Shown here: piece after piece, positions 61,043 to 64,000 of the stretch
How the letters are laid out: each line of letters begins with the position of its first letter
Position numbering within the stretch: position 1 is the stretch's first letter
DNA from: Parachlamydiales bacterium
GTDB taxonomy: Bacteria > Chlamydiota > Chlamydiia > Chlamydiales > JAJFMK01
Length of the DNA: 64,000 nt
Reading direction: 5' to 3'
NCBI GenBank assembly: GCA_963765145.1
Contig: CAVXVG010000018.1
Location: 158,359-222,358, forward strand
The notes under the pieces: generated by a model
What the model saw: only the letters and a program-made list of their open reading frames with translations
The model's database searches: none
What the model was told of the DNA's origin: nothing
Translations under genes and position numbers: made by a program

Positions 61043-61060
61043 CCCCGAATCCAAAACCCC
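61043..61060 (+). repeat. Left ciliate-type telomere remnant (C4A4)
   Basis: CCCCGAATCCAAAACCCC followed by an abrupt switch to very AT-rich sequence. Confidence 0.7.
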
Positions 61061-61114
61061 TTGATATATAAATATAAGAATAAAAAATATTGGAAATTTT
61101 TATTAATGTTTTTA

Positions 61115-63906
61115 TCATTTTGAATTATTGTTTAAAGAGCAAATTTTAAAGAAGGGATTTGTAAAGTACTAATTCATTATTTCTTCGTCTAATTAGTCTT
61201 CTCCATAGTTTAGTCTCATGAATAGGTTTAACGCTTATTCAAATATATTGTTATCCTTTTGTAAAGCTTCAACATTACTCTTTGACATAATGATCTTCAT
61301 TTTATGCTGTTTATTTTCACTAGAATGTTTAAGACTGCACATCAAGCACAAATAGAGGTTGCACTTATCACATAAATGTGTAATACTGCTTGTAATTCCA
61401 GCTTCTTAAAGTTCTTTTAACATATGACTCTGCATTTTGTTCTCATTTTAAAATTAATTAGGCAAAACCCCTAGCACCTTCCAATATTTATGCATTAGCT
61501 AATTAAGGTGTTAGAGTATAATTAGGAAAGCATATTTAACAAATGAGAGGGATTACAGATTAATTCTGTTCACTTTATGGTTTAATATTATCTCAGTCAT
61601 TAACAAAAAGCTTATAGGTATTTTCATTGGAGCACAATTATTCTTCAAAGAGATTTCTCAGCATAAGTTTTTTATTTGTATCTTTATTTTTGGGGCTGCT
61701 TTACAAAGTTATTTCTTTTTCAAAAGGAACCAACATAGAGTAATAATCAACATCTTCAAATTCTTGCAATAATATACCACCATGTTATAAGAATTGCTAT
61801 TCTAATTTGACCTATTGCTTTTTTCTTTACTTCTTCTTTTTCCTTTTATTTTTCTTTTATTCTTCTTTTGTTTGCTATTGCTATATTTCTTAAACTATTT
61901 TTTAATCTTATATCTAATTGATCTTATTTGTAATTACCCTAATTAAATAAATAGTGATTGGTAATTTTAATATGTACTCTCTATGTTTCTTCTTAAATGT
62001 TTATTTCTTGTTCTTAAATTCCTCTCTTCTTCTTCCTGGTCATCTTTATCTTAAATATCATCATTGTCTTCATTTAAAAATGATTTAATTTATATATTCA
62101 ATTTCATCTTTTTTTCTTATTTTACTATTGATTTTTGTTACTCTATAATTTAAATAAAAATAAATATAAAAATATAATAAAATACTTTGAATTATGATTT
62201 AGAAGAGGCAGAAAGCTGTAAAATAGTTTTTTTCTTTAATTCTTAAAGTTTTTTAATTTTTTCATCAACAAGATTTCCTTTATTAAATTGTTATTAAGTA
62301 TTCTATGTTCTTTATAGTCTTTTAATAGGATCTAACGTTATATCAAACTTAGCTTTTAATTGTTCTTCAACTTTTTATTAGAAATCTTAAGAGACCTTTT
62401 CTGGGTTTTTGATATCAATTTAAGATTTCGAGTCATCATTAACCAATTGATTAGTTATCATATTTGAGGTATCATATTTATCTAAGAATTCTTCATTTTC
62501 AGTATAAAAGTCATCACTTTTTTTTTCAATAATAGATTATTCCTGATCTAATAGAATATTAAATAATACTTAATTGATTACCTAATGTTGATAAGTGTCT
62601 TTTTTTAATATAATCGAGCAAAGGAACATTTTTAGGTAATGATCTTAAAATTAAACTATGAGGAATATTGACTGAATTACACATTATGTTATCTTCTCTG
62701 ATAGCTTTTTTTACTTCTTCTTCTTTATATTTGACAGTCTCTCCAAAATAGTTAACTAATCCATTTTCATCTCTTACATTTACATATTACTTATTTCCAA
62801 TAATGTATCCATTAGCAGTCAACTTAAAAACATGAACCTATTTGCAAATGCAACAAGTCACTTAACTTGCAGCACCTCTACTTTTGTCATTAATTGTTGC
62901 TACTGCAAGAGGCATTATTGATTATGTCAAACACCTAAATATTTCTTAATCAAAATATTTATTAAAATTACTTTTCACAGAGAGTATCTCCACAGTATAA
63001 TATCCTAGGAGCATTATTATGTTCTGAAAATTATGTATTACATATTTAGCATGAGGTACAATTACCTTCATCGAAATATTACATATTTTTATAATTAGAA
63101 TATTCTAATTACTTTTACTTTTCCATAACTTCCTTTAAATTACTATTGAAAATCTTGCATAAACACATTCCCTTATTTGAAAGGTTAACATAAATTTATT
63201 TCCTATTCTAGGTAATCTTAGTCAAAGTTTCTTTAACTTTAATTCTCTCCAAATAATTGAGTTTAATCAGATTTCTCAGTCAAGGCATCTTATATTGATA
63301 AAGAGTCTTATTCAAAAGATTAGTGCCAATCATTTACCTCATATCACCTTACAAAAAGTATTCTTTTCCTCACTTTTTTCAGTAGGCCTATTAATTTGAA
63401 TTCACTTTTCCATTTCATTATGAACAGCAGTCTCATTTAAGTCTTATGTACTTGATCTTTGCTAGTTAAGCAATGCTTTCTCATTCTAATTAATCTCTGC
63501 TGCAATTTTACTCTTGAAAGCTATTAATTTGTTCTGATTCGATAAATTTTTGACTCTGACTCTTATATCCATGTAGAGGTTTCAATCGATTAGTATGAGC
63601 CAAGGTTAATATTCTCTTATGATGTAGTCAGATTTAGCAAATATGTTTTAAGAGTCCATCAATATCAATTGTCATTATAGCCTTATGTAGATCTTGTCTA
63701 CTAATTTGTGAAAAGGAGCTAATTCATTATTCCTGATGTGGTTGTAGCGGTTGTGTTTAGTTTAGATTGCTCTTAGGTAATGCTTTATGAAGAGGAAATA
63801 ATGAATTACTCAATTAAGATATAGATCTATTTAGGATATAAGCTTTTGGAAGTGAGAGTTCGGATTACAATAATATTTTCATTTCAGAATCTATTTTGTC
63901 AATCAT
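61115..63906 (-). CDS. Ciliate RING-finger/B-box protein (TAA/TAG = Gln, spliced, contains indels; start uncertain)
   Basis: Manual translation: CQICNTQFSEHNNAPRILYCGDTLCEKCL...VTCCICK, SLPKNVPLLDYI, HLCDKCNLYLCLMCSLKH. GT-AG introns at about 62971-62935, 62581-62548, 62185-62141 and 61977-61939; TGA stop at 61117-61115. Confidence 0.8.
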
Positions 63907-63981
63907 TTTTTAATTTTTATTTATATAAGAACTTATTACGAGTTTCCTTTCATCTCATTTATTATCAAAAATAATATTAAA

Positions 63982-63999
63982 GGGGTTTTGGGGTTTTGG
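63982..63999 (+). repeat. Right ciliate-type telomere (G4T4)
   Basis: GGGGTTTTGGGGTTTTGG at the end of the window. Confidence 0.85.
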
Positions 64000-64000
64000 T

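Follow-up and report, generated by a model that had tools for sequence, protein, structure and literature searches.

The last three kilobases of the contig analysed here raise the question of what a very AT-rich segment, bounded by telomere-like repeats, represents at the end of a chlamydial assembly, and how the two came to be joined. The window, which is the whole stretch of 64,000 nt under analysis, is the final 64 kb of contig C18, which ends at window position 64000. The source genome consists of 37 contigs and 2.68 Mb and is 84.8% complete; the bacterial part of C18 is 219 kb in length. A match to the CT021 family is present, consistent with the chlamydial label of the initial annotation. 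The GC content is 43.8% in positions 1-61042 and 25.5% in positions 61061-63981, with the step at about 61050, which confirms the abrupt compositional shift that had been described.

This segment is bordered by telomeric repeats on both sides. The right telomere (63982..64000, plus strand), at the end of C18, reads G4T4G4T4G2 plus T; the 18-mer GGGGTTTTGGGGTTTTGG occupies 63982-63999, the window has no other match when up to 2 mismatches are allowed, and 100 shuffles produced none. The left telomere (61043..61060, plus strand) is a garbled C4A4C4A4C4 that reads CCCCGAATCCAAAACCCC, differs from the 20-mer by 2 mismatches and a 2-nt gap, and coincides exactly with the GC step. Within it, CCAAAACCCC occupies 61051-61060, a 10-mer that is weak when taken alone (15 matches genome-wide, counting both strands). 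The exact 20-nt telomere, with up to 3 mismatches allowed, has no match in the window because both ends are shortened. The telomeres announced for both ends are therefore exact at the right, and present in a garbled form at the left. The C4A4 repeat on the left and the G4T4 repeat on the right both face outward, as in spirotrich nanochromosomes.

Inside the telomeres lie a 3′ non-coding subtelomere of 54 nt and 9% GC (61061..61114) and a 5′ one of 75 nt and 15% GC (63907..63981), so that the short non-coding subtelomeres of the initial annotation were recovered. The whole molecule, 2958 nt with short AT-rich flanks, is gene-sized; at ~3 kb it is close to the mean of about 3.2 kb given for Oxytricha trifallax nanochromosomes (PMC3558436). 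The C4A4/G4T4 caps, the short AT-rich flanks and genetic code table 6 are also shared with O. trifallax and Halteria grandinella (PMC3558436, PMC7858049), and the distance from stop codon to telomere is 63 nt in Halteria (PMC7858049) and about 55 nt here. On the other hand, its 25.5% GC is below the values given for Oxytricha genes (34%; PMC3558436) and for Halteria (43%; PMC7858049), and, unlike the nanochromosomes of these ciliates, the segment of the window sits in a bacterial assembly.

The coding region between the subtelomeres (61115..63906, minus strand) reads from an ATG at 63906 to a TGA at 61117, with UAR as Gln, and is frameshifted as assembled. The longest ORF in the ciliate region has 85 aa under table 11 and 386 aa under table 6. 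Three exons on the minus strand (63126-62972, 62934-62582 and 62547-62186, spanning 62186..63126) give 290 spliced codons that include 18 TAA, 2 TAG and no TGA, which corresponds to 0 stops in table 6 against 20 in tables 10 and 11. These codons fit a code with UAR=Gln and UGA as stop, that is, a non-euplotid code; the identity of the residue as Gln is established on a ciliate piece of another contig, C26, and not on the gene of the window. For the 290 central codons, then, the statement that the gene can be read only with TAA/TAG as Gln was borne out.

Two other readings of the code were tried. A Euplotes-type code (table 10) was rejected on the 20 stops in 290 codons, and translating TGA as an amino acid, which would open the 5′ part, was rejected as uninformative, the codon score switching frame several times there. 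An 18-nt in-frame GTG..TAG stretch at 63405-63388 (minus strand) hides a TGA in this 5′ part; it is a candidate very short intron, and its third base is not A.

Four introns are predicted on the minus strand, at 62935..62971 (37 nt, splitting a RING motif), 62548..62581 (34 nt), 62143..62185 (43 nt, 5% GC, with the following frame off by one base as assembled) and 61939..61977 (39 nt). As judged from the sequence, all are short GTA..TAG introns with 5-18% GC, and two of them restore the frame exactly; GT-AG introns of 34-45 nt had been anticipated. In Oxytricha, the modal intron length is 37 nt and the third base is nearly always A (PMC3558436), and 59% of Halteria introns measure 30-40 nt, with GTA..AG boundaries (PMC7858049).

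The path from ATG 63906 to TGA 61117 required six frameshifts at 4 of 4 penalty settings of a codon model, which was trained on other loci, is crude and mis-calls introns, so that the frameshift count alone was used. The region is probably one gene and its frameshifts are likely read errors, while a second gene or missed introns may also account for them. The single minus-strand gene of the initial annotation holds as to minus-strand coding; as assembled, it does not read through, since at least six frameshifts interrupt it.

The coding region contains a predicted RING, a Q/E/K-rich low-complexity stretch and a B-box-like motif. The RING-like motif lies within the three spliced exons and reads C-x2-C-x15-C-x-D-x2-C-x2-C-x25-C-x2-C, with 7 Cys in RING spacing and Asp at the fourth ligand, which is normally His; its first half matched the TRIM32 RING at E=0.003 and 0.005 (PDB 5fey and 2ct2). 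The last coding segment (61115..61459, minus strand) ends in TGA and carries the pattern C-x2-C-x4-C-x2-C-x3-H-x6-H; the best Pfam match of this pattern was zf-B_box_Trim66 at E=0.31, and no B-box match was obtained in PDB. Of the two motifs that had been named, the RING is a partial match and the B-box a weak one. The product would be, in the ciliate, a predicted RING-type E3 ubiquitin ligase of TRIM-like layout. It resembles TRIM/RBCC E3 ligases, such as TRIM32, in the RING spacing and in the Cys/His cluster downstream. It differs from them in the Asp at the His ligand, in the about 250 residues that precede the RING, and in the long low-complexity stretch between the RING and the non-significant B-box-like motif; the TRIM/RBCC order, with the B-box directly after the RING and then a coiled coil, was not found, as the B-box-like motif lies ~1.5 kb past the RING, close to the C-terminus.

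For the gene in the window, no protein homolog was found that would link it to ciliates. Exon 2, used as query on metagenome contigs, gave a homolog in 0 of 162 pattern matches; the last exon gave 0 among 26 candidates in a search of longer proteins, which is weak evidence; and none was present among the telomere loci that we examined in other genome records. Exon 2 and the last exon had no PDB match below E=0.6, and there was no Rfam match in 57000-64000.

Telomeres, flanks, code and introns agree with one another, and they support the reading of 61043-64000 as a telomere-to-telomere ciliate macronuclear nanochromosome, complete and fused to the chlamydial contig, as the initial annotation had it. 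A TBE-like transposon with telomeric ends, or some other mobile element that entered the bacterial DUF1295 gene at the join, is an extremely unlikely alternative. TBE transposons have long terminal inverted repeats and a transposase; here the inner 50 nt at the two telomeres are not mutual inverted repeats, and 11 table-6 frames had no Pfam transposase match. In addition, there is no far flank and no target duplication, and the introns and short AT-rich subtelomeres fit a macronuclear chromosome. The resemblance to such an element lies in the C4A4 repeats at the ends of Oxytricha TBE transposons (PMC3558436).

On the bacterial side, the join falls within a gene for a DUF1295 membrane protein, whose 3′ part occupies 60406..61042 (minus strand). 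This part matches Pfam PF06966 at E=3e-55 over profile positions 35-235 of 235 and has 77.7% identity to residues 55-264 of its counterpart in G001, the genome of a congeneric relative assembled as one contig. It lacks the first 54 codons of the gene, in agreement with the claim that the junction removes the 5′ end. At the junction (61042..61043), the bacterial DNA meets the outer telomere end with no shared letters and no adapter-length insert. G001 and G002, one of two further comparison genomes (G002 and G003), both carry a full-length DUF1295 gene, and their alignments to the window end at 61041; past 61042, the relatives read ATAAAAGCG... and the window CCCCGAAT..., with nothing in common.

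Three public DNA runs (X1-X3), which contain relatives only (word share 0.06-0.07) and were available as short-read contigs, gave the same result. In 3 of 3 runs, the contigs agree with the window as far as 61042 and from there read ATAAAAGCGACAAG..., a normal bacterial continuation, and no contig of these runs crosses the join into the ciliate part. The join is thus absent from the relatives, namely G001, G002 and all three runs, as is expected for a chimeric read. The nanochromosome itself had no cover in the three runs, which was not counted as evidence. Among the runs listed, none exceeded a word share of 0.07 and none was an RNA run.

The place where C18 stops can be located on the relative's chromosome. 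The gene order in G001 is DUF1295-SufE-Trp/Tyr permease. In the source genome (84.8% complete), neither SufE nor the DUF1295 N-terminus was found (best E 0.074 and 0.39, respectively), so that the check proposed earlier, a search for the missing 5′ end on another contig, did not find it. The permease ortholog is near the end of contig C22, with 75% identity and a single match in G001 and in G002, a synteny based on relatives at 68-75% identity. Within 1148 nt it contains 20 non-3n indels, whereas the 8 genes compared on C18 have 0-4 apiece, and this region looks like an unpolished read. At C22:10238, the permease breaks off into an HD-domain gene, which was not found in G001-G003. Accordingly, ~780 bp of chromosome (the DUF1295 start, SufE and the permease end) are missing between C18 and C22, and both edges of this gap enter unrelated DNA. 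The HD-domain stretch (C22:10238-10851) is probably a chimeric tail of a kind invisible to GC content.

Close to where C18 stops, two genes are each frameshifted in relation to G001, namely comM and the signal peptidase gene lepB (window positions 56196-59716). These splits are likely assembly errors rather than pseudogenes, because the runs show that single bases are missing from the window there. The join lies at a contig end, that of C18, and the comM and lepB frameshifts and the C22 indels are signs of low coverage. Between comM and the signal peptidase gene, positions 57700-57950 hold a repeat that is matched by many contigs in all three runs.

We attribute the join, with high confidence, to a chimeric long read located where coverage has a gap. 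The initial annotation had proposed a chimeric read or a mis-join; an artefact is strongly supported and, of the two, the chimeric read is favoured over an overlap mis-join because there are no shared letters at the join and C22 has its own foreign tail. An assembler that joined two separate reads or contigs, with no chimeric molecule involved, would still have produced an artefact, and we consider this quite unlikely. Multi-domain chimeras made by assemblers have been reported (10.1101/2025.04.22.649783) and an N gap forms the connection at 3 of the 120 telomere loci examined in other genome records; against this, the present join has no sequence common to both sides and no N gap, and it falls exactly at the outer telomere end.

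A chimeric read would have originated during library preparation, when a nanochromosome may have been ligated end-on to a sheared bacterial fragment. The chimeric molecule would have survived assembly if no other read covered the spot, which would leave a single read as its support. Nanochromosomes would be frequent partners in such ligations, with tens of millions of short DNA ends per cell; tens of millions of telomeres are given for the Oxytricha macronucleus (PMC3558436). In one study, ligation libraries contained 0.88-1.41% chimeric reads (10.1101/2021.02.21.432182), and multi-domain chimeras occur in long-read metagenome assemblies (10.1101/2025.04.22.649783); the indels point to a long-read platform here. 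The join resembles the chimeric reads and contigs of these two reports in its abrupt one-point shift of GC content and taxonomy and in its cross-domain partners. It is unlike them in that the foreign DNA is an intact molecule as found in nature, and its telomeres place the join with single-base precision. One point against a purely raw read is that the 290 central codons and a 259-codon NOP2 exon on C26 are free from frameshifts, which is cleaner than would be usual at the error rate of C22.

Other contig ends of the same assembly also depart from its composition. Of its 74 contig ends, 10 have a strong GC shift; among random internal points, the figure was 4 of 500. Seven of the ten are GC-rich (C1R, C7L, C26R, C30L, C30R, C31L and C35R, with 54-74% GC in a genome of 44%), two are ciliate, and one is an AT-rich repeat after a GC-rich mutS fragment. 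The seven GC-rich ends, flagged by composition only, are probably foreign tails, and some of them (C30) may be native. The end of C20 has three parts, the native sequence, ~0.8 kb of 65% GC with the mutS fragment, and ~3 kb of a 25% GC tandem repeat, which is possibly eukaryotic.

The second ciliate end, C26:1-1573, is a partial nanochromosome that encodes a NOP2 rRNA methyltransferase in table 6, and its G4T4G4T4G3 telomere adjoins bacterial DNA. In this gene, the TAA column corresponds to Gln in 74 of 74 named homologs. A 31-row tree placed it within the ciliates (97/93), in a 15-row clade with Moneuplotes (99/94) and outside the subclade that holds Moneuplotes; among its closest 80 metagenome relatives, 31 have C4A4 telomeres, 19 of them at both ends. 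The Gln column, the tree position and the C4A4-capped relatives indicate, therefore, that a non-euplotid spirotrich was present in the extract. The presence of a ciliate in the sample, which the initial annotation had deduced from C18, is thus borne out by both the C18 nanochromosome and the C26 piece.

The same kind of fusion is found in other prokaryote genome records. In half of a collection of species-representative genomes, the telomere pattern occurred at 124 loci, and ~250 stretches are estimated in total. Among 120 loci that were examined, contig ends account for 92, while 18 loci on 16 contigs border other DNA, 3 adjoin an N gap and 7 are otherwise internal; the telomere tracts are mostly 20, 28 or 36 nt in length. 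Whole nanochromosomes are included inside contigs of two of these genomes (G406 and G408). The fused loci belong to records of Nitrospira, Alphaproteobacteria, Acidobacteriota, Methanosarcinaceae, Saprospiraceae, Phycisphaerales and others, as named in the record titles; none of the 18 has a chlamydial title.

This distribution also bears on a join formed in vivo, either by ligation of bacterial DNA to a finished macronuclear chromosome in a ciliate or by entry of a nanochromosome into the bacterial chromosome. The assembled sequence is contiguous, as such an event would require, and we nevertheless regard it as very unlikely. An insertion should return to the 5′ part of DUF1295, and the contig instead stops at the second telomere with that part missing; the other edge of the gap bears a different foreign tail; and the bacterial side continues for 219 kb. 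Moreover, the same form of join occurs in records of many unrelated lineages, and the gene is unreadable in table 11. We give very little credence, likewise, to the particular case of a bacterium living inside a spirotrich whose chromosome was joined in vivo to a telomere-capped macronuclear chromosome, with symbiont DNA entering the host somatic genome.

Even with a chimeric read as the origin of the join, the partner could be a ciliate because the bacterium lives in a spirotrich, a possibility that overlaps the preferred explanation and that we consider improbable. Ciliate DNA is present on two contig ends, and chlamydial genomes have been obtained from single ciliate cells, including Loxodes and Trachelocerca (PMC12644861); in the accessible part of PMC13229535, no ciliate host is named. 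Ligation follows lysis, so the partners would mirror the free DNA ends in the extract. Loxodes and Trachelocerca are not spirotrichs, which counts against a spirotrich host. Seven of the ten shifted ends are GC-rich rather than ciliate-like, and genome records named for free-living bacteria and for an archaeon contain equivalent fusions.

The telomere 18-mer is also no commoner in this phylum than in control phyla. It was found in 2 of 400 other genomes of the same phylum, both times on free contigs of 2.4-2.6 kb, and the two control phyla gave 3 of 400 and 0 of 123, with centres left out (Fisher p=1.0, on small counts and with related genomes that are not independent of one another). G001 does not contain the 18-mer. 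The proposal that the ciliate is a candidate host is thus unsupported by the GC-rich ends, by the fusions in unrelated records and by the telomere frequency in the phylum. A ciliate host is possible in general, and the join itself is no evidence for a host link.

The join is without biological meaning, and the tail should be trimmed from C18; C20, C22, C26 and the other flagged ends need checking before claims of gene transfer or of a host are made on them. With 92 end loci and 18 fused loci among the 120 examined in prokaryote records, a C4A4 screen therefore offers an inexpensive way to flag ciliate contamination and chimeric contigs. The ciliate gene plays no role in the bacterium. If the join were real, it would represent the first spirotrich host and a direct transfer from a symbiont to the macronucleus.
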